Origin: Escherichia phage KEP4
DNA: 64,000 nucleotides
Sequence record: PP047754
Direction: 5' to 3' (one strand)
A program made the translations under genes and the position numbers. The notes beneath the pieces were generated by a model. That model did no database searches. It worked only from the letters and a program-made list of their open reading frames with translations, and was not told where the DNA came from. Shown in pieces: positions 1 to 58,978 of this stretch. Each line of letters begins with the position of its first letter. Position 1 is the stretch's first letter.

Positions 1-101
1 TGCGCCGAAGTGGGCAACTGTTTACCGGACTGATCGGGTAGACCCAGGAGAGAGCAGGTAATCCCGATCAGGAGGATGAGGAGTAACATCATGTAAAACA
101 T
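1..101 (-). CDS. hypothetical protein, N-terminal fragment (hydrophobic N-terminus MFYMMLLLILLIG); gene runs off the window start
   Basis: minus-strand ATG at 101 with GAGGG 6 nt upstream; open frame to position 1; too short to judge. Confidence 0.3.
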   Translation of the reverse strand, partial: MFYMMLLLILLIGITCSLLGLPDQSGKQLPTSA

Positions 102-158
102 AGTGTTCCCTCCCTTCCATGCAACTAACTTTACTACAATTATTTATTGAATAAAGCG

Positions 159-728
159 TTATTTTAACACTTCTAACTTCACAACACGACGCAGAAGGTA
201 AACATATTCGCCAGCAGCTTCATGCGTCATATAATGGGTAGAAGGTGTGGAATGATTGTTCTGGGTTTCTTTTAATCCAACACGTTCTGCCCAACCATTA
301 ATAGAGTTCCCATAGAAACCGATAATCGCGCCAAAATAAATGCGCTGGCTTTCTGGCTCTAAAACATAGTTGACAGTGAAGCAAATATCAGAACGAATAG
401 ACTCCAGTTTCATACCAACACGACCTTCGGAGAATTCGTTACGAACATATAAATGACGGAAACGATCGCGCCGCGCTTGTGATGATTCTTCCAATTCTTG
501 TCGGAGTGAAGAAGTTACGTCAATATTAAATGAAAATGTTGGATTCTGTAAATCGGAACGGGCCAACTCTAACGCAGATTCAACAACGCGACGGAAATTG
601 ATACTTTTACCTGTCAGGCGTTTCACTTCATCTGTGATTGTTCCAAAAGGGATTTTCGTGGCGCGTTCCCCTTCGTATTTTGCCAATAAAGGAATAATGT
701 GTTTCATGATTGCTGTGTTAATGTGCAT
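159..728 (-). CDS. hypothetical protein (189 aa)
   Basis: 569-nt minus-strand ORF; GAGG SD 9 nt upstream of ATG at 728; no recognisable motif. Confidence 0.55.
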   Translation of the reverse strand: MHINTAIMKHIIPLLAKYEGERATKIPFGTITDEVKRLTGKSINFRRVVESALELARSDLQNPTFSFNIDVTSSLRQELEESSQARRDRFRHLYVRNEFSEGRVGMKLESIRSDICFTVNYVLEPESQRIYFGAIIGFYGNSINGWAERVGLKETQNNHSTPSTHYMTHEAAGEYVYLLRRVVKLEVLK

Positions 729-1044
729 TCCGGAGCCTCACCGAATTGATTAAATGTCTCCATTATTATATTGGAGATACGTTTATTGAATATAAACACA
801 GGAATGGCCAATAAAATAATGACAGTGATTATTAATAGGTAAAAACTACTTTTCTACAACATCAAGAAACTGTATCTTAACGCGGTGCCCTTCGAGTTGT
901 GAGTGTTAACGAACAACGAGAAGCAGCCTCCATGGCTGTGGAATGGGACTGCCTGTCAAGGCGGTGTTACGAGCGAGGGCGTCAGCCCCCTCGCGAGTAT
1001 ATTCGAATAAATTAAACGCGCGCGAGCGTTTTGATTCCCGTTGG

Positions 1045-1051
1045 CTAAATA
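1045..1051 (+). promoter_or_regulatory. late-promoter-like box CTAAATA
   Basis: CTAAATA about 40 nt upstream of the baseplate gene start; analogue of the T4 late promoter TATAAATA. Confidence 0.4.
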
Positions 1052-1091
1052 TCTTCAACACCATATTCAAACTCAGGTGATGGAGATTATC

Positions 1092-8174: not shown

Positions 8175-10715
8175 ATGATTTCTCAATTCAATCAACCACG
8201 CGGTTCCACTTCCATAGAAGTTAACAAACAATCTATCGCTCGAAATTTCGGTGTCAAAGAAGACGAAGTCGTTTATTTCACTGTCGGTATTGACCTCAGT
8301 GGATTTAAAGTAATTTATGATGAGTCTACCCAACGGGCTTATTCTCTCCCTTCCGGTATTGTTTCAGGGACAACTGCAATTAGTCTGGATGAAAGAGCTA
8401 TCCTCACTCATTCTTCTGGCTCTGTTGACCTTGGGGAATTAGCAGTAAGCCGCGAAGAATATGTGACTTTACCTGGTTCTTTTAATTTCGGCCATACCAT
8501 TAATGTGAAAAATGAACTTCTTGTTCACGATGATGAAAAATATCGATGGGATGGTTCTTTGCCAAAGGTAGTTGCCGCTGGTTCTACACCCGATAACTCA
8601 GGCGGTGTTGGCACAGGCGCGTGGATACCTGTTGGCATTAATTCTTTGTCTGGCGATGGTGGTTGGTCGCGTATCGGATCAGAATTTGGTAAATCTTTGA
8701 AAGAACATATTCAAAGTCTTCCCAGCTTGTCTGCTGTCAAATATATGACATTTGTTGAATACGCAGCCCTTTTGGCAGGAAACGACACGGTCAATCATGA
8801 CGTTAAAGTTCAGCAAGTTATGGATGAAGCGCATGAATTGAAATGCTCTGTTTATTTTCCAACAGGGCGTTATGTATTTGACACTGCAGTCAACGTTTGG
8901 ACATACGTTCGCGCTGTTTGGGGAGACGGTTCGGCCATTATCACCAGACGTTACGGAAGTCAGTTTAGTTCCCCTGGGGTGATAGATCCGGCGCATGATA
9001 CGCGTAAATTATTCCGAATGATGGGCGGAGCGTTGGGACCGCAGTCTATTCATGGTCTTATTATTGATGGTAATGCGCGTTCATTTACAGTCCCAAAACA
9101 TACTGATTCGGATCAAACTTATCCCAACCAAACTTATTATGGCGATGTTGAACCAGTCGATGTTGGCCCATATGTATTTGGACCGGAAGGAAATACTTCT
9201 GTTCCTGGCGCTTCTTACTATAACCATGATAAGAAAGAATCCGGTCTGACCGTTTTCGATATGGTGTTTAAAGATCAACCTGGTGGTGGTGTCGTAGGTA
9301 ATGGCCAAAACGTCCGTGTGTTTGGAAATCACTTTATGGGTTGGTATGACCATGCTGTGTATATCGCCGGAAGTAACTTTGCCTCGGAAGGAGACGGAAT
9401 TTTGTGTAGTGATATTGTTGTCACTGGTAACGTATTCCGAAATCGTATTAACAATCGAGGCAATGGAGCAGTCAAAGCACGATTTGGTGTTAATCGTTAC
9501 GCAGTTACAGGCAACTCCTTTGATATAGTTGACTATTGCATGGCATTTGAGATGGGTAATGGACCAGCGACTCAACCATTTGGCCAAATTGTTGTGGACG
9601 GCAACGTGTGCACTTCAGATGGTATGTTTATGCAAATCGGGAATGATATTGGGACTGAGTGGTTCTCGACCAATTGGCTCAAATCAATGACTATTACGAA
9701 TAACACAGCACGGTCGTTGGATCGCATTTTCTTGTTAGGGGTTAGCGGATCTTCCAGTTATATTATGGATGGGTTTTCTGTACAAGTGGCCAATAACCGA
9801 TTTTATGCGCCGTCATTTTTGTCCGTGTACACATTCATGACGAATACGGAATGGATGTTGAATAACAATATCGTGGAGATCACAGGAACTGCTATGATCA
9901 CAGGAGTTGATCAATCGAACATCAACAATTCACGGATATATCTTAAAGATAATGTTTTAGGAGTTCTCCGGACTGATGTTCAAGGTTATGCTGCAGTCAG
10001 TAATTTTCAACAAGTTGAAATTTCTAATAATACATTGCGTAATTTGTATTTCCAAATAGGAAGTTATACCACAGATCTGTTTATTAAAGGAAATACTGTT
10101 AACTACACATCTGCATTATCCAGTAAAAACTTGGCGCTCATGTATTCAAGTGCTGGGAATGGTTTGATAACAGCCGATATCAGTGATAATAAGTTTTTCG
10201 GTGGAGTTGGTCGTTGCCAACTTAAATTCAGTAGCAGCGCTTCTCTGGATTGTATTAACAACAAATTCTTTACAACTTCGGCACCGTTTTTGGAATTGCA
10301 TCCGGCTGGTTATACTCCACGTGTCGTTCGTATAAAGGACAATTTAATGCGTGGTGCAGGCGTATTGCTGGCTCCTCTTGCTTCTGGTGTTTCTTTGTCC
10401 GGTGCTGGGAATTATATGGTAATTTCGGGAAACACGTTGATGGCTAATAACCCATCTGCGCCTGAAAATATAACTTTGTATCAGGACACAGGTGCGCAGA
10501 GTTGGGTGGCCCATTATGAAACTATCAGATGTGTTCGAAATGATTTCAAATCTGCGCTGTTGGCGATTAATGCAACAGGGACAGCACAATCTGGTTTGAG
10601 TACTACCAATAAATTCTGGTTCGGGGATAACGCGACGATTAATACCACGGTTGTTTGTACTTATCCTGCTGGCAACAAAGCCAACACCGACATCACCCAG
10701 ACAGTTTCAGTTTAA
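8175..10715 (+). CDS. tailspike protein (846 aa), parallel beta-helix type
   Basis: N-terminal ~150 aa paralogous to ORF 13591; middle region has pectate-lyase-like repeats (GNGQNVRVFGNHF, VTGNVFRN, VTGNSFD). Confidence 0.7.
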   Translation: MISQFNQPRGSTSIEVNKQSIARNFGVKEDEVVYFTVGIDLSGFKVIYDESTQRAYSLPSGIVSGTTAISLDERAILTHSSGSVDLGELAVSREEYVTLPGSFNFGHTINVKNELLVHDDEKYRWDGSLPKVVAAGSTPDNSGGVGTGAWIPVGINSLSGDGGWSRIGSEFGKSLKEHIQSLPSLSAVKYMTFVEYAALLAGNDTVNHDVKVQQVMDEAHELKCSVYFPTGRYVFDTAVNVWTYVRAVWGDGSAIITRRYGSQFSSPGVIDPAHDTRKLFRMMGGALGPQSIHGLIIDGNARSFTVPKHTDSDQTYPNQTYYGDVEPVDVGPYVFGPEGNTSVPGASYYNHDKKESGLTVFDMVFKDQPGGGVVGNGQNVRVFGNHFMGWYDHAVYIAGSNFASEGDGILCSDIVVTGNVFRNRINNRGNGAVKARFGVNRYAVTGNSFDIVDYCMAFEMGNGPATQPFGQIVVDGNVCTSDGMFMQIGNDIGTEWFSTNWLKSMTITNNTARSLDRIFLLGVSGSSSYIMDGFSVQVANNRFYAPSFLSVYTFMTNTEWMLNNNIVEITGTAMITGVDQSNINNSRIYLKDNVLGVLRTDVQGYAAVSNFQQVEISNNTLRNLYFQIGSYTTDLFIKGNTVNYTSALSSKNLALMYSSAGNGLITADISDNKFFGGVGRCQLKFSSSASLDCINNKFFTTSAPFLELHPAGYTPRVVRIKDNLMRGAGVLLAPLASGVSLSGAGNYMVISGNTLMANNPSAPENITLYQDTGAQSWVAHYETIRCVRNDFKSALLAINATGTAQSGLSTTNKFWFGDNATINTTVVCTYPAGNKANTDITQTVSV

Positions 10716-41389: not shown

Positions 41390-42889
41390 ATGTCTGAGAT
41401 CCAAATAGTCAAAGTGAACGAAGTTAGAATGCGGATCCTCGCCGAGGATTATATCCGTGAAGAACTCAACGATTACTTCAAATTTGAAGATCCTAATTTC
41501 CAACCGAATCCGTTCAGTAAATGGGACGGCGTAGTGCGGCTGTTCACAAAGAGTTCTGGGCTTATCGACATCGGCCTGTTATTTGAGGTGTTCAAATTCT
41601 GTAAGATGAACGGTTACACCATCAAATTAGATCCGACCTTAAAATATATTCAAGATATTCCGGATGAAGAAATTCATGCGTTCATCGATACATTGAATGC
41701 GGTGTACCGAGACGAAAACAAACAATATCAAAAAGCGATTGTCCGTGATTATCAATTTGATTCTGTTGCCACAGCAATACGCCAAAGCAGATGTGTCCTC
41801 GAAGCTGCCACGAGTGCTGGCAAATCCTTTATTTTGTACATCATGGCGCGTTACTACAGGCAACGCAGAGATGCCCTCGAAAGTAATCTGAGGACGTTAA
41901 TTGTTGTACCATCCATTCATTTGGTGACTCAGTTGTATGACAACTTCGAAGAATATAGCCACGGGACAGAATGGAAGCCATTGATGAACGTCCAGACAAT
42001 ATACGAAGGGGCAACGAAAGAGATTTTCAAACCCATAGTTATTTCAACTTGGCAAGGTATCCAGAACCAACCCAAAGAGTGGTTCCATCAATTTGGAGAT
42101 ATCGTCGTTGACGAAGTACATACATCAAAATCAGATAAATTGTCTTACATCTTGAACAACTGTATTAACGCTGATCAACGTTTGGGAGTAACCGGAACCC
42201 TGGCGAATACAAAGGTCGCAGGGTTACAAGTCGTTGCTCACTTTGGCGCATATCATAAAATTATTACAGCGCGCGATTTAATCGATCTAGGATATGCGGC
42301 AGACATCAATGTTAATATGATTGAAGTCATACATCCTATGGCAGACTGTATTGAAATGCACGGTGCTGAGTATCAAAAGGAAATAGAATTCCTCATTGCT
42401 AACGAACGCCGAAATGAATTGATAGCTCGAATGGCTCTATCTTTGAAAGGGAACGTGGCAGTCATGTTCGAACGTATCGATGCACACATGATGTTGGTTT
42501 ATGAAATGCTATCGGCAGTCAAGAAAAACGTATTCGTCATCAACGGGGAAGTCAAGACAGAAGTTCGTAAACAGATTCAGGCTGCTATGGAAGAAGGGGA
42601 AGATATAACACTGTTGGCATCATATGGTACTATGCAACAGGGCGTATCTATCAAAAAACTCCATCATCTGATATTGGCCCATCCCAGCAAATCTTATATC
42701 CGTGTTATACAGACATTGGGGCGTTTGATGCGTCAGCATTCCTCTAAGGATGTTGCGCGAATCTGGGACCTGGTAGACAACCTGCGTTACAACGGTTCCT
42801 ACAACCATGCTCTCAGGCATTCTCATGAGAGATATAAATTTTATCTTATGGAGCGCCACCCTGTTAAAATGAAAAAAGTGGCGCTCTAA
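41390..42889 (+). CDS. uvsW: UvsW-type SF2 DNA helicase
   Basis: WDGVVRLF, ATSAGKS (Walker A), VDEVH (DExH), STWQGIQNQPKEWFHQFG, KKLHHLILAHP, IQTLGRLMRQHSSK, IWDLVDN parallel T4 UvsW motifs; track start 41387 is GTG. Confidence 0.9.
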   Translation: MSEIQIVKVNEVRMRILAEDYIREELNDYFKFEDPNFQPNPFSKWDGVVRLFTKSSGLIDIGLLFEVFKFCKMNGYTIKLDPTLKYIQDIPDEEIHAFIDTLNAVYRDENKQYQKAIVRDYQFDSVATAIRQSRCVLEAATSAGKSFILYIMARYYRQRRDALESNLRTLIVVPSIHLVTQLYDNFEEYSHGTEWKPLMNVQTIYEGATKEIFKPIVISTWQGIQNQPKEWFHQFGDIVVDEVHTSKSDKLSYILNNCINADQRLGVTGTLANTKVAGLQVVAHFGAYHKIITARDLIDLGYAADINVNMIEVIHPMADCIEMHGAEYQKEIEFLIANERRNELIARMALSLKGNVAVMFERIDAHMMLVYEMLSAVKKNVFVINGEVKTEVRKQIQAAMEEGEDITLLASYGTMQQGVSIKKLHHLILAHPSKSYIRVIQTLGRLMRQHSSKDVARIWDLVDNLRYNGSYNHALRHSHERYKFYLMERHPVKMKKVAL

Positions 42890-42894
42890 CCATT

Positions 42895-43260
42895 TCAAAT
42901 ATCTTGATTCACATAGGCGGGGGTTGCCTCGCCTTCTTTGTTGGAACCAAATAAACAGTCGATCGTGCCAATACATTGTTGTAGCACTTTCGGCTCAAGA
43001 ATCTGAGAAAACAATTCTTCATTAGATGCCAGCAGTGGAACAACTTTCACTTCCCGCGCCTGGCCTTGTTGAATAATGCCAACATACAGACCTTTGTTAT
43101 TTGGGAGTAATGGTATCACCAACATCGGTGACACAATAAACCCCGATGTACAGAAAAGGCTTTGTAAATAAACGCCTTTTAATGACGAACGTTGTTCTGA
43201 TATGGAAAGAATTGCTTCTTGGTCTTCCCCTACTGCGTATAAACCAACAAATTGCTTCAT
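42895..43260 (-). CDS. hypothetical protein (121 aa), convergent with uvsW
   Basis: minus-strand ORF with ATG at 43260; no motif recognised. Confidence 0.45.
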   Translation of the reverse strand: MKQFVGLYAVGEDQEAILSISEQRSSLKGVYLQSLFCTSGFIVSPMLVIPLLPNNKGLYVGIIQQGQAREVKVVPLLASNEELFSQILEPKVLQQCIGTIDCLFGSNKEGEATPAYVNQDI

Positions 43261-43599
43261 ATATTATTTCTCACGTGTTAGCAAACTTGGCTACATAATA
43301 ATGTCATGCTCTGTTTAGACCAAATAAAATATTTTACTTGTTGAATAAAAATCGCTTTCTTGTTGAACAATCCGTGCGTAATATACGAGTTGTGAGCTTT
43401 GCGAGCAACGAGTATTATCACGAGCGAAGCGAGTAGACTGATAAAGAAAGGTTTTATTAAAACAGAATATTATAAATGCCGTCAGGCATTTATTTATCGC
43501 GCGTAGGGCAATTTATCACTTGTTCTATAACTACAAACACGCGATACTAATTTGCGTCAAATATGACTTGAACCCCACTATATTTTGAGGATACAACTA

Positions 43600-44268
43600 A
43601 TGCAAGAGATCACTCTCTCCGAACGCACTTTACAACTGCTGGCTAACTTTGAAACCATCTGCCCCTCTATCGTTCTGGCACCTGGTAAAAAGTTGCGCAC
43701 TGTTAACGATTCCAGTACAGTTATCGCTATTGCCGACATTGACGAAGACTTCCCGTTCGAATTCCCGATTCTGGATCTGACCAAATTGCTGGCAATCCAG
43801 CGTCTGCCGAGTTTTAAAGGCGGTAAAATTGAAATGTCGGAAGACCACATTTTGCTGAAAGGTGAAAACTCCCAACTGCAATTCTGGCGTTCCGCTAAAG
43901 AACTGACTGTCGTTCCGGCAGACAGCATCGATCTCCCGTCTGTAGAATTTGAAGCAACAGTCACTCCTGAAAAAATGAAAGAGCTGACCCGCGCATGTTC
44001 TACTCTGGGCCACAAAACTGTACGCCTGGTTGCCAGCGGCGGTAAAACTCGTCTGGTGGGCACGACCACTACTATCGACAATTCCAACGATTACACTGTT
44101 GAGTTGGGTGAAACAACTCTGGGTGATTTTGCTATGCCTGTTGATGTGGTCAACCTGAAAATGATCGAAGGCAACTACGTGATCCGCGCCTGTGCCGAAA
44201 TGCAACTGGTTAACTTCCAATCCGCAGACGGCACCATCAACTATTACGTCGGCATGCAGCTGGATTAA
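43600..44268 (+). CDS. sliding clamp (T4 gp45-like)
   Basis: 222 aa; N-terminus TLQLLANFETICPSIVLAPG parallels T4 gp45 TTALLKNFATINSGIMLKSG; GAGGA SD; precedes clamp-loader genes. Confidence 0.8.
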   Translation: MQEITLSERTLQLLANFETICPSIVLAPGKKLRTVNDSSTVIAIADIDEDFPFEFPILDLTKLLAIQRLPSFKGGKIEMSEDHILLKGENSQLQFWRSAKELTVVPADSIDLPSVEFEATVTPEKMKELTRACSTLGHKTVRLVASGGKTRLVGTTTTIDNSNDYTVELGETTLGDFAMPVDVVNLKMIEGNYVIRACAEMQLVNFQSADGTINYYVGMQLD

Positions 44269-44298
44269 TCAATAACGATTCGGCGCTTTATTATCGGT

Positions 44299-44320
44299 GG
44301 CGGGGGTTTCCCCGCCCTTT
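44299..44320 (+). terminator. terminator-like hairpin (ggcgggg-gttt-ccccgcc + CTTT)
   Basis: 7-bp GC stem after the clamp gene. Confidence 0.6.
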
Positions 44321-44346
44321 GAAACGTTTTATCTAAAGAGGCTGCA

Positions 44347-45336
44347 ATGTCTAACATCACTATCGTCACAGATCAATACGCGTGGGAAAACAAATATCGT
44401 CCTGACAATCTGGATGAGATCGTCCTCCCTTCAGACGTCCGTGCAAAAATCCATGGCTATGTTACATCAGGTAATGGAAACATCCCCTCAATGCTGTTCT
44501 ATTCCCCTCAGCCTGGTACGGGCAAGACTACTTCTGCTCTGGCTGTGTGCAACGAAATCGGTTGTATCAAACCGTTGACGATCAATGCGTCACTGGATAA
44601 CAGCATTGATGTCATCCGTGACCGTGTTATTCAATACGCAACTGGCGTCAGTGTTTTCGGTGGCCGCAAAGTCGTTATCCTCGATGAAGTTGAGCGACTT
44701 TCCATGGCGGCGCAGGAATCCCTGAAAGGCATCGTAGAGAAAGTCTCAAAAAACTGCTCCTTCATCCTGACGACTAATGCGAAACAGCGCGTTAACGAAC
44801 CTCTGCGTTCCCGCTGTCGTGAAATTGATTTTATCTGGTCTGAAAAGGAAGCAGATGAAGTTAAACTTCAATTCATGCGTCGTTGCGCAACTATCCTGAC
44901 AGAGGAAGGCATTCCGTATGAAGCTGGTGTAATTGCTTCCATTGTGAAATCATATTTCCCAGATAATCGCAAAATTATGGGAACTCTTCAGGATAATGCC
45001 ACCACGTTTGGTAAAATCGATGAACGCGCTCTGGCACAGGTTAAAGCAGGGGAATTCCAAGCGTTGGTGGATTTCCTAAAAACCAATGATTGGGCTGGGA
45101 TGAAGCAGTGGGTGACCGACAACCAAAACTACATCACTGAAGATTTTTATTCCCGTTTCTTCCATTTCTGCGTTCCCCAGAACAAGGAAAAGACTCCTTT
45201 GATTCAAAACGAGTCAATCCCTGATCTGGTATGTGTCTGTGGTCAGTCTCAGATTGAACATCGTTCCGTCGGCGACGTCTGGTTACACGGCGTTTACTTC
45301 TTGACTAACGTCATGCTCAACATCAAATGGAAGTAA
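44347..45336 (+). CDS. clamp loader large subunit (T4 gp44-like AAA+ ATPase)
   Basis: Walker A PQPGTGKTT, Walker B ILDEVE, sensor SRC motif (RSRCREI). Confidence 0.85.
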   Translation: MSNITIVTDQYAWENKYRPDNLDEIVLPSDVRAKIHGYVTSGNGNIPSMLFYSPQPGTGKTTSALAVCNEIGCIKPLTINASLDNSIDVIRDRVIQYATGVSVFGGRKVVILDEVERLSMAAQESLKGIVEKVSKNCSFILTTNAKQRVNEPLRSRCREIDFIWSEKEADEVKLQFMRRCATILTEEGIPYEAGVIASIVKSYFPDNRKIMGTLQDNATTFGKIDERALAQVKAGEFQALVDFLKTNDWAGMKQWVTDNQNYITEDFYSRFFHFCVPQNKEKTPLIQNESIPDLVCVCGQSQIEHRSVGDVWLHGVYFLTNVMLNIKWK

Positions 45337-47137: not shown

Positions 47138-47160
47138 TATAATCCGTTATTCACTAAACA

Positions 47161-47188
47161 ACAGAGGCTATAATGGCCTCTGTTTTTG
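47161..47188 (+). terminator. rho-independent terminator (acagaggc-tataat-ggcctctgt + TTTTTG)
   Basis: 8-9-bp stem, U-tract. Confidence 0.8.
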
Positions 47189-48546: not shown

Positions 48547-50562
48547 ATGGCAGAATTCAAACCCTTCGCAACGGCAGTTAATAACAACGTGCTGGCGATG
48601 TCCGCAACTGGTCTGTTCATGACCAATATCGATAAAGATGCTCTTTGGGATCTGTATCTGGCATCTTTCCCTGCTGGTACCAACCCGCTCTACCGTGAGC
48701 GTACTGAGCACGACTGCACCTGCTGTAAACAATTCATCCGTAACATCGGCGGTGTGGTCACCATCGACTCCGACCTGAACGTAATTTCTATCTGGGACAA
48801 CATTGATCTGGGTAATGAATATGACGTGGTGGCTGCGGCTCTTTCCGCGTATGTCAAACAACACGCAATCGTCGATGTTTATTTTAACGATTCTGCCAAA
48901 GTCGGCCTGTCTCACAATCACGAAATGAAAGACGGCAATGTCCGCACCTACAACCACTTCCACACCGACCTGCTGGGTAGCTATGTTCTGCGTCCGGACG
49001 CAATCGCTTCGAAAAAAGGTGAAATCCGCCAGGCTATTGAATTGTTTGAACGCGGTCTGCGTGAAATTACTCTGGAATCAGCTGAAATCGTTCTGGAACT
49101 GATTGACCAGAATTCTCTGTATCGCGGCGCAGAACACAAAGCAGCAGTGAAGGGATTTGTTGAAACCAAAAAGGCATATGAACAAATCCCCGAATCAGCC
49201 CGTTCTCTGTGGGCATGGCATACTGGATACCGTTCAAACAATCATGTTCCACACGGCATCCGTAACACAGTTATCGGCACTCTGCTGACAGATATCAGCG
49301 AAGGCGTGGAACTGGAAAAGGCTGTTAAATCGTTTGAATCCAAAGTTGCTCCGGCGAACTACAAACGTCCGACAGCGCTGGTTTCAAAATCCATGATCGA
49401 AAACGCTCAGAAAGAAGTTATTGCTCTGGGTTTGGAAGACTCACTGGCGCGTCGTTATGCGGTTTATGATGATCTGACAATCAACAACGTTCTGTTCGCA
49501 GATCTGGCTGCTCAGAAAGCGATGGATCCGTTTGCTCAGCTGGCTGCCGAAGTGAAAACTCCGACCAAGTCCCTGGAAAAAGTTGAAGAGATCAGCGTTG
49601 ATGATTTCCTGAGCAATGTTCTGCCAAAAGCGCATTCAATGGAAGTGCTTGTAGAGAATTCTCATACTAGCAACCTGATGTCCCTGGTTGCTCCGGCGAA
49701 CCCAGATGCGCCTAACCTGTTCAAGTGGAACAACGGTTTCTCCTGGTCTTACAACGGTGAAGTGACCGATTCCATTAAAGAACGTGTAAAGGCTGCTGGC
49801 GGTAAAGTTGACGGGTATCTGCGCGTTTCCTTGGCGTGGCACAATAACGACGACCTCGATCTGCATATGTTCAACAACATGGAGCACGTTTACTTCCGCG
49901 ATCGCCGCTCTATGACAGGTGCCCATCTGGATATCGATATGAACGGTATGGATGGTATTGATCCAAACCGCGCTCCGGTGGAAAATATCATCTTTACAGA
50001 TGAAAGCAAGCTGCGCGATGGTGAATACCGTTTCGAAATCCACAACTACAATCAACGTGAAAAAATCGACGAAGGGTTTGAAGTCGAAGTAGAATACAAA
50101 GGCGCAACGCATCGTTTCAGCCATCCTGGCCTGAAAGATCAGGGACGTATCACCGCAGTCATCTTGACTGTTAAAGACAAACAAGTTGTTGGCATTAAGT
50201 CCGAACTGGCTAATGTTGATAAGTCTAAAGAAGTTTGGGGTATCAAGACAGCGACCTTCCAGAAAGTACAGCTGGTCCTGAACTCACCAAACCATTGGGA
50301 TGGCGAGCAGACAGGCAACAAGCACGTGTTCTTCATCCTGGAAGGTTGTGCTAATCCTGAAGGTACTCGTGGTTTCTACAACGAATATCTGAAGCCAGAA
50401 CTGGATAAACATCGTAAGGTTTTTGAAATGTTGGGTAGTAAAATGAAAGTCCAGCCGAATGAAAACCAACTGTCCGGTCTGGGATTCTCGACGACGCAAC
50501 GCAACCATGTGTTCGTCAAAGTGTCCGGCGCGTTTAACCGTACTGTAAAAGTCATTTTCTAA
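48547..50562 (+). CDS. hypothetical large protein (671 aa)
   Basis: AGGAAG SD 8 nt upstream; TEHDCTCCKQF motif; no recognisable catalytic signature. Confidence 0.6.
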   Translation: MAEFKPFATAVNNNVLAMSATGLFMTNIDKDALWDLYLASFPAGTNPLYRERTEHDCTCCKQFIRNIGGVVTIDSDLNVISIWDNIDLGNEYDVVAAALSAYVKQHAIVDVYFNDSAKVGLSHNHEMKDGNVRTYNHFHTDLLGSYVLRPDAIASKKGEIRQAIELFERGLREITLESAEIVLELIDQNSLYRGAEHKAAVKGFVETKKAYEQIPESARSLWAWHTGYRSNNHVPHGIRNTVIGTLLTDISEGVELEKAVKSFESKVAPANYKRPTALVSKSMIENAQKEVIALGLEDSLARRYAVYDDLTINNVLFADLAAQKAMDPFAQLAAEVKTPTKSLEKVEEISVDDFLSNVLPKAHSMEVLVENSHTSNLMSLVAPANPDAPNLFKWNNGFSWSYNGEVTDSIKERVKAAGGKVDGYLRVSLAWHNNDDLDLHMFNNMEHVYFRDRRSMTGAHLDIDMNGMDGIDPNRAPVENIIFTDESKLRDGEYRFEIHNYNQREKIDEGFEVEVEYKGATHRFSHPGLKDQGRITAVILTVKDKQVVGIKSELANVDKSKEVWGIKTATFQKVQLVLNSPNHWDGEQTGNKHVFFILEGCANPEGTRGFYNEYLKPELDKHRKVFEMLGSKMKVQPNENQLSGLGFSTTQRNHVFVKVSGAFNRTVKVIF

Positions 50563-54875: not shown

Positions 54876-54899
54876 GGCGGGGAAACCCGCCTTTACTTT
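54876..54899 (+). terminator. terminator-like hairpin (ggcggg-gaaa-cccgcc + TTTACTTT)
   Basis: 6-bp GC stem after the vWA gene. Confidence 0.55.
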
Positions 54900-58947: not shown

Positions 58948-58978
58948 AAGGCGGTTATTATTAAACCGCCTTTTATTT
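58948..58978 (+). terminator. rho-independent terminator (aaggcggtt-attatt-aaccgcctt + TTATTTG)
   Basis: 9-bp stem plus U-rich tail. Confidence 0.75.

Follow-up and report, generated by a model that had tools for sequence, protein, structure and literature searches.

Two copies of a conserved hairpin element, a candidate structured RNA, stand before the sliding-clamp and baseplate gene arrays of Ackermannviridae phages

The putL/putR sites of phage HK022 and the nutL/nutR sites of lambda occur as two sense-strand copies at the heads of major transcription units, next to divergent promoters, and have a core of adjacent stem-loops with terminators further downstream. The leader of T4 gene 32 combines a 5' pseudoknot with an unstructured, A+U-rich operator that follows it. 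In T4, the origins oriE, oriF and oriG sit at points of transcription divergence, and at a minimum they need a promoter together with an A+T-rich unwinding element (PMC3016281). On a smaller scale, the mini-hairpins GCGAAGC, GCGAAAGC and GCGTTAGC are found in the priming origins of G4, St-1 and alpha3 and in RSF1010 ssiA (PMC13037366). For the Ackermannviridae, early promoters and a late promoter consensus are unidentified and no origin has been mapped (PMC3184105, PMC3121705); CBA120 has no MotA or AsiA, its early promoters are unidentified, and antitermination has been raised as a possibility (PMC3184105). We found no relevant transcriptome study in the literature. Biocontrol and therapy make wide use of members of this family (ViI, CBA120, Det7, Limestone and the Klebsiella Taipeivirus phages).

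Here we analyse a spacer that shares part of its anatomy with each of these systems. It lies at positions 43261-43599 of a 64,000-nt stretch of Escherichia phage KEP4 (PP047754), which we call the window, and is 100% identical in Escherichia phage FEC14, Salmonella phages Se-B and Se-D, and Det7 (Kuttervirus, Ackermannviridae). In our judgement the chances are about even that these 339 bp form a two-way control region with, at its core, one of two paralogues of a structured Ackermannviridae element not catalogued before. The immediate surroundings are as follows:

42895..43260, minus strand: gene for a 121-aa conserved protein (phrog_4255), transcribed away from the clamp gene
43261..43599: intergenic, putative control region between diverging genes, 339 nt, 34.5% GC
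43600..44268, plus strand: gp45-type sliding clamp gene, heading the clamp / clamp-loader / regA array

The original prediction rightly described the spacer as non-coding, extending from the start of a minus-strand ORF (43260) to the clamp ATG (43600), and as AT-rich (its GC content compares with 44.5% for the window). It erred in calling the ORF at 42895-43260 convergent with the clamp gene, from which it diverges (it is convergent with uvsW only), and in calling the spacer the longest non-coding stretch in the window, as 729-1091 is longer (363 nt, up to the ATG at 1092 of the Se-B annotation). The gene order is a uvsY-like gene, an exonuclease gene and uvsW on the plus strand, the 121-aa ORF on the minus strand, the spacer, and the sliding clamp gene on the plus strand, followed by gp44- and gp62-like clamp-loader genes and then regA; the spacer therefore parts divergent genes. 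The start of the 121-aa ORF at 43260 is correct because its N-terminus, MKQFVGLYAVG, is invariant in 8 orthologues, and the 77-aa annotation of this ORF in FEC14 is therefore truncated. Close to its C-terminus the protein carries (S/T)(L/I)DxLFG, which resembles the gp45-binding tail of T4 gp43, EKASLDFLFG (PMC6212786). Neither this protein nor the leftward neighbour of the second copy (see below) has a match in Pfam or NCBIfam, and a comparison of the two detected no homology (E = 0.08).

An alignment of 13 phages, comprising Kuttervirus, Limestonevirus, Agtrevirus, Taipeivirus and unclassified relatives, gave these DNA identities between genera:

42895..43260, leftward ORF: 0.43-0.47
43261..43599, whole spacer: 0.66-0.75
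43381-43436, hairpins H1 and H2 (described below): 0.78-0.85
43511-43599, clamp-proximal promoter-like site and leader: 0.80-0.84
43600..44268, clamp gene: 0.75-0.83

The hairpin segment is thus conserved on a par with the clamp gene and far above the leftward ORF. Mechanical ORFs do exist in the spacer, at 43338-43436 (32 aa, TTG start) and 43399-43506 (35 aa, TTG start) and, on the minus strand, at 43278-43421 (47 aa, GTG start), and several GenBank records carry "hypothetical protein" ORFs in the spacer upstream of the clamp gene, as would be expected if a small protein were encoded here. However, the variable columns are evenly distributed over the three codon phases in the spacer (46/45/43), as opposed to 25/49/176 in the clamp gene, and the indels among relatives are not multiples of 3; those of 1, 4, 5 and about 20 nt interrupt every spacer ORF. 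A protein-coding gene was rejected on these grounds, and we regard a small spacer-encoded protein as extremely improbable. Conservation without codon phase, together with frame-breaking indels, therefore points to strong non-coding constraint.

One segment under this constraint had been described as cgagc-rich repeats at 43397-43432. The CGAG cluster is real, with five occurrences in 43386-43433 compared to 0.075 expected per 50 nt, and is the densest in the 64 kb; it does not consist of simple repeats, its members being arms of two hairpins:

43383..43415, plus strand: hairpin H1, AUA-C-GA-G-UUG-U-GA-GC-UUU-GC-GA-G-CAA-C-GA-G-UAU, with 11 standard pairs and two tandem G·A motifs
43420..43434, plus strand: hairpin H2, AC-GA-GC-GAA-GC-GA-GU, which contains the GCGAAGC mini-hairpin

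The stems with GA motifs have the form 5'-YGAG/CGAR-3', for which tandem sheared G·A pairs are predicted, and are closed by loops that are U-rich or GNA. Among 12 distinct H1 sequences, the paired cells amount to 99.2%, and double changes are seen at 5 of the 11 pairs, counts that were made on the sequences that gave the structures and that represent only about 6 lineages. As controls, 0 of 500 shuffles matched the observed score, and slid partners were paired in 21-59% of cells. The unpaired and non-canonical positions of H1 (GA, UUG/CAA) are invariant too. The signal is strand-specific, because on the opposite strand the G·A motifs become C·T mismatches.

In H2, a C-G pair is replaced by U-A in all Aglimvirinae, and the apex has been swapped for a longer G+C stem in the second copy of Kuttervirus and for 13-nt loops in SKML-39 and CRW-SP2; judging from the pair change and the apex swaps, H2 appears to act as a structural module. 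It carries GCGAAGC (43425-43431), and GCGTAGC and GCGTTAGC are found in relatives, so that the mini-hairpin motif GCGNAGC / GCGNNAGC, as defined in PMC13037366, is present as a sequence motif, which is not the same as membership of a functional family. AV101 and PH4 have GCGTTAGC or GCGAAGC as the apex of H1, and Kuttervirus has GCUUUGC or GUGUUAAC.

The invariant H1 core, GAGTTGTGAG-N-CGARCAACGAG, is found twice per genome in IMG/VR isolates, both times sense to the downstream gene. In the window the two occurrences are at 43387-43412 and 894-920, both on the plus strand. A covariance model of H1 (R1) scores 56 bits at copy 1 and 61 bits at copy 2, while the next best score in the window is 13.6; weak R1 matches at 10310 and 32179 are within genes and were dismissed as chance. 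The two copies occupy the same two loci in one orientation in all genomes examined. Copy 2 is upstream of a gp6-like baseplate wedge gene (ATG 1092), which opens the structural array, and is made up as follows:

890..998, plus strand: copy 2 as a whole, a larger paralogue in the other long divergent spacer, 42 kb from copy 1
890-923, plus strand: H1 of copy 2 (R1, 61 bits)
924-938, plus strand: hairpin CAGCC/GGCUG
930-933 with 943-946, plus strand: H-type pseudoknot CCAU:AUGG, with a CCCU:AGGG variant
948-965, plus strand: hairpin H3
969-998, plus strand: extended H2
1017-1028, plus strand: G+C box CGCGCGCGAGCG
1045-1052, plus strand: late-promoter-like CTAAATAT, ahead of the gp6-like gene

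As a side observation on sequences of the last type, CTAAATA occurs in the window 11 times on the plus strand and once on the minus strand.

An insert of about 48 nt between H1 and H2, consisting of the hairpin, the pseudoknot and H3, sets copy 2 apart from copy 1. All 243 of 243 cells in the copy 2 helices are standard pairs, and 6 of the 27 pairs show compensatory changes, including A-U to C-G in the pseudoknot (5:4) and U-A to C-G in H3. These helices tolerate G·U wobbles and never contain an A·C mismatch. The minimum-free-energy fold of the plus strand (-50 kcal/mol, z = -3.9) contains the same helices; the minus strand gives z = -2.6. Covariation, G·U tolerance, the pseudoknot, the predicted fold and the strand asymmetry all favour a structure formed by the plus strand, most simply as RNA. 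These data also bear on whether the spacer might be a control region acting as duplex DNA only, with divergent promoters, operator repeats (TTGTTGAA, CGAG) that bind a transcription factor, and a bidirectional terminator, and without any folding. Such a region would make sense of the promoter-like sites and of the direct and inverted repeats that exist here, among them an invariant short inverted repeat, TGTT-G-AACA, and the early and middle promoters of the family are undefined (PMC3184105). We nevertheless consider it very unlikely, given the compensatory double substitutions that preserve pairing in 5/11 H1 pairs and 6/27 copy-2 pairs and the strand-specific signal (G·A on one strand being C·T on the other), and since a duplex operator does not predict that changes in helix length are tolerated and apices swapped.

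A search of 50,697 phage records found the element nowhere but in Ackermannviridae. It also precedes the clamp gene of the metagenomic genome L020 and that of Erwinia phage Bue1, whose clamps are 53% and 56% identical, respectively, and there H1 has one inserted pair and a G·U. The gp6 spacer of Bue1 has a GA-hairpin with one motif and an unchanged H2, together with an A+T tract, a G+C hairpin and a CCGCGCGAG / CGCGCGAG box. Comparison of the copies therefore yields a common module, in which one or more GA-hairpins are followed by an A+T tract of 17-85 nt, a CGCGCG(AG) box and the downstream gene's putative promoter; between the A+T tract and the box there is often a hairpin whose sequence depends on the lineage. 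Searches against Rfam 15 gave no match with E < 2 in 42000-45000 or 500-1400, no gathering-score match in the window, and no match over the elements of L020, L174, L177 and L236; ARAGORN reported 0 tRNA or tmRNA genes in the window. The published CBA120 and AG3 genome descriptions do not list the element, the promoters and terminators predicted in the AG3 paper include neither it nor the palindrome described below, and the GenBank records consulted have no feature annotated over it.

Hairpins of similar design do occur elsewhere, raising the question whether these are generic stable hairpins (REP-like or "CUUCGG-like", perhaps once mobile) that would block exonucleases or terminate transcription with no specific partner and no regulatory logic. 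Hairpins of the type stem-GA-GC-GAA-GC-GA-stem are present in RB16 (before gene 3, on both strands) and BcepSauron (before a helicase gene), H1-like and H2-like hairpins are part of nested palindromic intergenic repeats in alphaproteobacterial metagenome contigs, and mini-hairpins stabilise mRNA in vitro (PMC13037366). Against this, each genome has just two copies, whose loci and single orientation are the same in all genera, the unpaired and non-canonical positions (GA, UUG/CAA) are invariant, and the module keeps its linker order, A+T tract and G+C box. In addition, the exact H1 pattern has 5 matches in 596 Gb of bacterial genomes, which is near chance. We therefore think that a generic role is distinctly unlikely. 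A metagenome scan returned mainly heptamer tandem repeats and chance matches; it also brought a small number of true phage copies, as well as an alphaproteobacterial repeat that is unrelated. With a relaxed two-hairpin pattern in IMG/VR, the matches listed were chance ones, and 0 of 68 new loci among them scored with R1.

The hairpins are embedded in a spacer with further recognisable parts, and copy 2 is preceded by a promoter-like site:

43295..43323, minus strand: leftward promoter-like site, -35 TTGGTC (43323-43318), 17-nt spacer, -10 TATTAT (43300-43295)
43301..43330, plus strand: weak candidate rightward promoter, ATGTCA-18-TAAAAT (9/12 in the scan)
43326-43347 and 43348-43369, plus strand: two tandem 22-nt direct repeats that contain TTGTTGAA, each ending CTTGTTGAA(T/C)A
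43435..43471, plus strand: A+T-rich, poorly conserved spacer, about 35 to 85 nt in relatives
43472..43499, plus strand: palindrome ATAAATGCC-GUCA-GGCAUUUAU followed by UUAUCG, terminator-like in both directions
43497..43509, plus strand: G+C box TCGCGCGTAGGGC, which corresponds to (C)CGCGCGAG(R)A of relatives and copy 2
43520..43548, plus strand: clamp-proximal promoter-like site, TTGTTC-17-GATACT
43556..43599, plus strand: clamp leader, with hairpin GUCA-AAUA-UGAC (43556-43567), conserved GACUUGAACCCCACUAUAUUUU and Shine-Dalgarno GAGGA (43587-43591)
850..878, plus strand: promoter-like site before copy 2, TTTTCT-17-TATCTT, predicted start near 885

That the region might hold promoters had been suggested, and hexamers and their spacing are indeed kept across genera in both directions, although most of the sites are below the threshold of a sigma-70 scan (at least 4/6 matches per hexamer, spacing 16-18 nt). 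Only 43301-43330 and 43390-43418 pass, and the scan's 6 matches are no more than shuffles give (3.9±2.1). TTGGTC-17-TATTAT and TTGTTC-17-GATACT match 3/6 in the -35 and owe their standing to conservation. The leftward -35 is within an invariant block, TGTTTAGACCAA, and its -10 is TATTAT or TAATAT in all genera while the spacer sequence varies. The clamp-proximal site is nearly invariant (blocks CACTTGTTCTATA and GCGATACTA), has equivalents in L020 (TTGCTT-18-TATTAT) and Bue1, and has the site upstream of copy 2 as its sole intergenic relative in the window. The latter keeps its hexamers and 17-nt spacing in Limestonevirus, Agtrevirus, Taipeivirus and Bue1 (TTTTCA-17-TACACT) with a drifting spacer, and stands about 5-12 nt before the first hairpin in five lineages. 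On this conservation, the leftward, clamp-proximal and copy 2 sites are plausible promoters.

For copy 1 itself, the promoter candidates are ATGTCA-18-TAAAAT, of which the -10 is TAAAAT or TAAATT in other genera and the -35 is poor, and hexamers overlapping H1. Of the -10-like hexamers, TAATAT (43379-84) is the best conserved, and it falls within the H1 stem. Because the clamp-proximal site (43520-48) separates the element from the clamp gene, the element need not belong to the clamp mRNA. The clamp operon includes a gene for a RegA-type repressor (PF01818), which makes a putative operator in the clamp leader possible. The sequence CTATATTT at 43578 was discarded as a late promoter, since it is 22 nt from the ATG and transcription would start inside the Shine-Dalgarno sequence.

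The repeats and the palindrome of the original prediction exist, with their positions corrected: the ttgttgaa repeats (TTGTTGAA) are at 43338 and 43360 and not at 43336 and 43363, and the 18-mer AAATGCCGTCAGGCATTT begins at 43474 and not at 43476. The two 22-nt repeats have a related third copy at 43510-43530. The second holds the invariant TGTT-G-AACA and is kept in all Kuttervirus, Aglimvirinae and Taipeivirus, and the first has been lost in Taipeivirus and the Erwinia phage. Full palindrome arms (ATAAATGCC/GGCATTTAT, 43472-43480 and 43485-43493) are complementary at 9 of 9 positions around a 4-nt loop. A terminator scan flags 43493-43472 on the minus strand only, with 3 G-C pairs; on the plus strand, the stem ends in AUUUAU and the tail is UUAUCG. 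The palindrome is kept in Kuttervirus and Aglimvirinae, whereas the Erwinia phage and L020 show it weakly or lack it, and Taipeivirus has a different, weak palindrome at this position (ATAGAT-TA-ATCTAT). Since the terminator-like palindrome is lineage-specific, control of read-through at a terminator is not a universal mechanism. By comparison, in every lineage compared both copies have a box like TCGCGCGTAGGGC after the A+T spacer. The A+T spacer is unstructured in Taipeivirus and the Erwinia phage, and 43437-43476, at 82.5% A+T, ranks in the top 0.05% of 40-nt windows.

This A+T-rich tract brings up the main rival reading, and a live one, which we judge unlikely: an origin of the T4 oriF/oriG type, in which a transcript driven by a promoter would form a persistent R-loop in the A+T tract after H2 and prime the leading strand. 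An origin-like element had also been raised in the original prediction. The hairpins would then be part of a structured primer RNA or, in another variant, act in the displaced plus DNA strand as single-strand initiation signals. Both copies are indeed at two of the few transcription-divergence points and among the most A+T-rich DNA of the window, a siting that resembles that of oriE, oriF and oriG (PMC3016281). Moreover, mini-hairpins of the kind known from priming origins are present in H2 and in the H1 apex of AV101 and PH4, uvsY and uvsW are just upstream of the spacer, and a structured primer RNA would account for the covariation too. Apices of the GCGAAGC or GCGTTAGC type, like tandem G·A pairs, have high stability in single-stranded DNA as well (PMC13037366), so that the structural evidence is compatible with a DNA-level role on the plus strand. 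On the other hand, the GC skew has no inflection at 43.3 kb, the A+T tract of copy 2 is only 17-23 nt long, and the tandem 22-nt repeats form no conserved iteron array, Taipeivirus and the Erwinia phage not having kept them. An iteron-type origin was rejected in its own right, as there are two tandem repeats only (77% alike) and the first is not conserved in these relatives. T4 origins have no common motif or required sequence (PMC3016281) and R-loops are sequence-independent, so that deep conservation of a fold is not predicted by an origin model, and the pseudoknot and G·U tolerance point to RNA and not to DNA hairpins.

Our favoured reading remains RNA. That the core of the element is a new structured non-coding or leader RNA is, on the comparative evidence, a proposal that we see as evenly poised, and from the same evidence we infer that the element is transcribed, where its transcript may start and end, and what it may do. 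The element would comprise H1 and H2, an unstructured A+U-rich tract, in most cases a terminator-like hairpin, and the CGCGCG(AG) box, and would act as a short non-coding RNA or as a 5' leader transcribed from a promoter within 43300-43380. The invariant G·A motifs could offer a platform to RNA polymerase or to a phage or host factor, and the bound protein would decide the fate of rightward transcription, into the clamp and replication array here and into the baseplate and structural array at copy 2. We favour a mechanism in which the element would regulate read-through, in an antitermination-like way, or the stability of the transcript. The remaining parts of the spacer would supply the leftward promoter of the 121-aa gene, the clamp-proximal promoter and the clamp leader with its ribosome-binding site. 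A role in transcript fate is suggested because the downstream co-directional array contains strong terminator-like hairpins on the plus strand (47160, 54876 and 58948), and because the family has no MotA/AsiA and antitermination has been suggested for it (PMC3184105). More generally, the two GA-hairpin modules may be the long-sought control points of ViI-like development. They could be a put/nut-like RNA, self-contained or dependent on a factor, by which host RNA polymerase passes terminators into the replication and structural arrays of a T4-related phage without MotA/AsiA, or a structured primer RNA for what would be the first R-loop origins defined in the family; we put this forward tentatively, as unlikely. 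A folded element in two copies at the heads of the replication and baseplate arrays would provide a mutable handle on transcription timing and replication start, and the candidate RNA family would have an unusual architecture, with stems punctuated by tandem G·A motifs.

How does the element compare to the described systems? It is like HK022 putL/putR and lambda nutL/nutR in having two sense-strand copies at the heads of major units that adjoin divergent promoters (promoter-like sites here), a core of adjacent stem-loops, and terminators downstream (here the terminator-like hairpins at 43472-43499 and within the array); the likeness is one of anatomy, and no similarity in sequence or model is known. 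Unlike in put/nut, the local terminator-like palindrome is not present in all lineages, and a separate promoter-like site precedes the clamp gene. The put/nut-like anatomy fits copies 1 and 2 of Kuttervirus and Aglimvirinae, and elsewhere the palindrome is not conserved. We know of no N-like factor in Ackermannviridae. With the T4 gene 32 leader the element shares a structured 5' module followed by an A+U tract in the leader of a T4-related replication gene, but about 100 nt, including a promoter-like site, separate its A+U tract from the ribosome-binding site, and the element also precedes a baseplate gene.

The mini-hairpins GCGAAGC / GCGNNAGC of G4, St-1, alpha3, RSF1010 ssiA and the N4 virion-RNAP promoters are strand-specific, as is the element. 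However, they act in single-stranded DNA, whereas the covarying pseudoknot and G·U pairs favour RNA here, and the Kuttervirus H1 apices GCUUUGC and GUGUUAAC are outside the mini-hairpin consensus. A hairpin promoter of the N4 type was discarded, as a phage RNA polymerase is unsupported: the "DNA-directed RNA polymerase" RefSeq label of a 671-aa ORF finds no backing in Pfam, PHROGs, NCBIfam or PDB sequences. As in T4 oriF and oriG, there is transcription divergence, a promoter-like site followed by an A+T-rich tract, and several sites per genome (PMC3016281). The T4 origins differ in having no shared motif or specific RNA structure and in using MotA promoters, which Ackermannviridae do not have (PMC3184105), and no skew signal is seen at the spacer. 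Finally, REP/BIME palindromes and the C(UUCG)G intercistronic hairpins of T4 are, like the element, very stable and intergenic; unlike REP/BIME, which are dispersed, the element is found at two fixed loci in one orientation, and its non-paired positions are deeply conserved.

Mini-hairpins of the same stem-GA-GC-GAA-GC-GA-stem design as the GA-hairpin elements also occur in unrelated phages outside the Ackermannviridae, where they lie in divergent or upstream spacers, and in one variant AC/GU replaces GC/GC. The examples are as follows:

RB16 (L255), 695-745 and 835-870, both strands: mini-hairpins 5' of late gene 3
BcepSauron (L256), 500-545: mini-hairpin

In addition, eight metagenome contigs (L166, L170, L174, L185, L195, L220, L223 and L236) carry a nested palindromic intergenic repeat that holds an H1-like hairpin, GGC-GAGUUGUGAGC-loop-GCGARCAACGAG-CC, and, on the opposite strand, H2-like hairpins such as CCGAGCGAAGCGAGG. 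These contigs are high-GC and probably alphaproteobacterial.

Two independent assemblies start at most 1 nt from the 5' CGAG of H1, namely the metagenomic relative L020 at copy 1 (the element ahead of the clamp gene) and phage rabagast (MT074469.1) at copy 2 (the element ahead of the gp6-like baseplate gene). An end of the FSL SP-063 contig also falls within copy 2. Such ends could be due to difficulties in sequencing or assembling across a very stable hairpin, or could have arisen by chance.

The additional hairpin of copy 2, H3, has GGCGGTGTTACG as its 3' arm (960-971), and the first six bases of this arm match the enterobacterial ops element, GGCGGTAGnnTG, the non-template-strand signal that RfaH recognises. 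The match has no counterpart in copy 1 and may be a coincidence. Further 5', the left end of the window (1-900) is not collinear with either of the best-matching genomes, Se-B (NC_049495.1) or FEC14: relative to Se-B there is a 147-nt offset, and the FEC14 match to the copy 2 spacer begins only at about 849. This lack of collinearity indicates mosaicism 5' of copy 2.

A published 'late promoter Porf217' of phage AG3, tgtagaaaagtagtttttgcctattaata (134939-134967 of the AG3 record), is the reverse complement of a conserved block, TTATTAATAGG..ACTACTTTTCTAC, located 5' of copy 2 (832-842). As published, Porf217 is directed toward the divergent 190-aa gene and not toward gp6. The late promoter of ViI-like phages is still undefined (PMC3184105). 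A candidate for its core is CTAAATA, present 11 times on the plus strand of the window and once on the minus strand, usually 30-50 nt 5' of the start codon of a structural gene or of uvsW. Example positions are:

1045, 4907, 15916, 26682, 31464, 41357 and 54362: CTAAATA, candidate late promoter core

Strong terminator-like hairpins separate co-directional genes in the replication and nucleotide-metabolism array, the second of them being bidirectional:

47160-47184, plus strand: terminator-like hairpin
54876-54891, plus strand: terminator-like hairpin
58948-58972, plus strand: terminator-like hairpin

A further open reading frame carries a polymerase label:

48547-50562: 671-aa ORF, given in RefSeq Se-B as 'DNA-directed RNA polymerase'

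Pfam, NCBIfam and PDB sequences gave no support for this label, and the PHROG families of the ORF have the function category unknown. Since it adjoins a 5-hmdU DNA kinase gene (PF18723), the ORF may belong to a thymidine hypermodification cluster.

Next to the clamp gene, the minus-strand ORF encoding a 121-aa protein (42895-43260) converges with uvsW, and its 3' end contains the following element:

42915-42934: G+C hairpin and T-run, AGGCGGGGGTTGCCTCGCCT TCTTTG, directly 3' of the uvsW stop codon

Hairpin and T-run are nucleotide-invariant between genera, the remainder of the ORF being approximately 45% identical, and the hairpin, placed within coding sequence, probably serves as the terminator of uvsW. 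The 121-aa protein itself, labelled 'clamp loader subunit' in some records, has at its end (S/T)(L/I)DxLFG (ASLDKLFG in Aglimvirinae, GTIDCLFG in the window) and, after this motif, an acidic tail, EGEATPAYVNQD, which is invariant. Judged by this motif, it may be a clamp-binding protein encoded beside the clamp gene. The motif is very similar to EKASLDFLFG, the C-terminus with which T4 DNA polymerase binds gp45 (PMC6212786).
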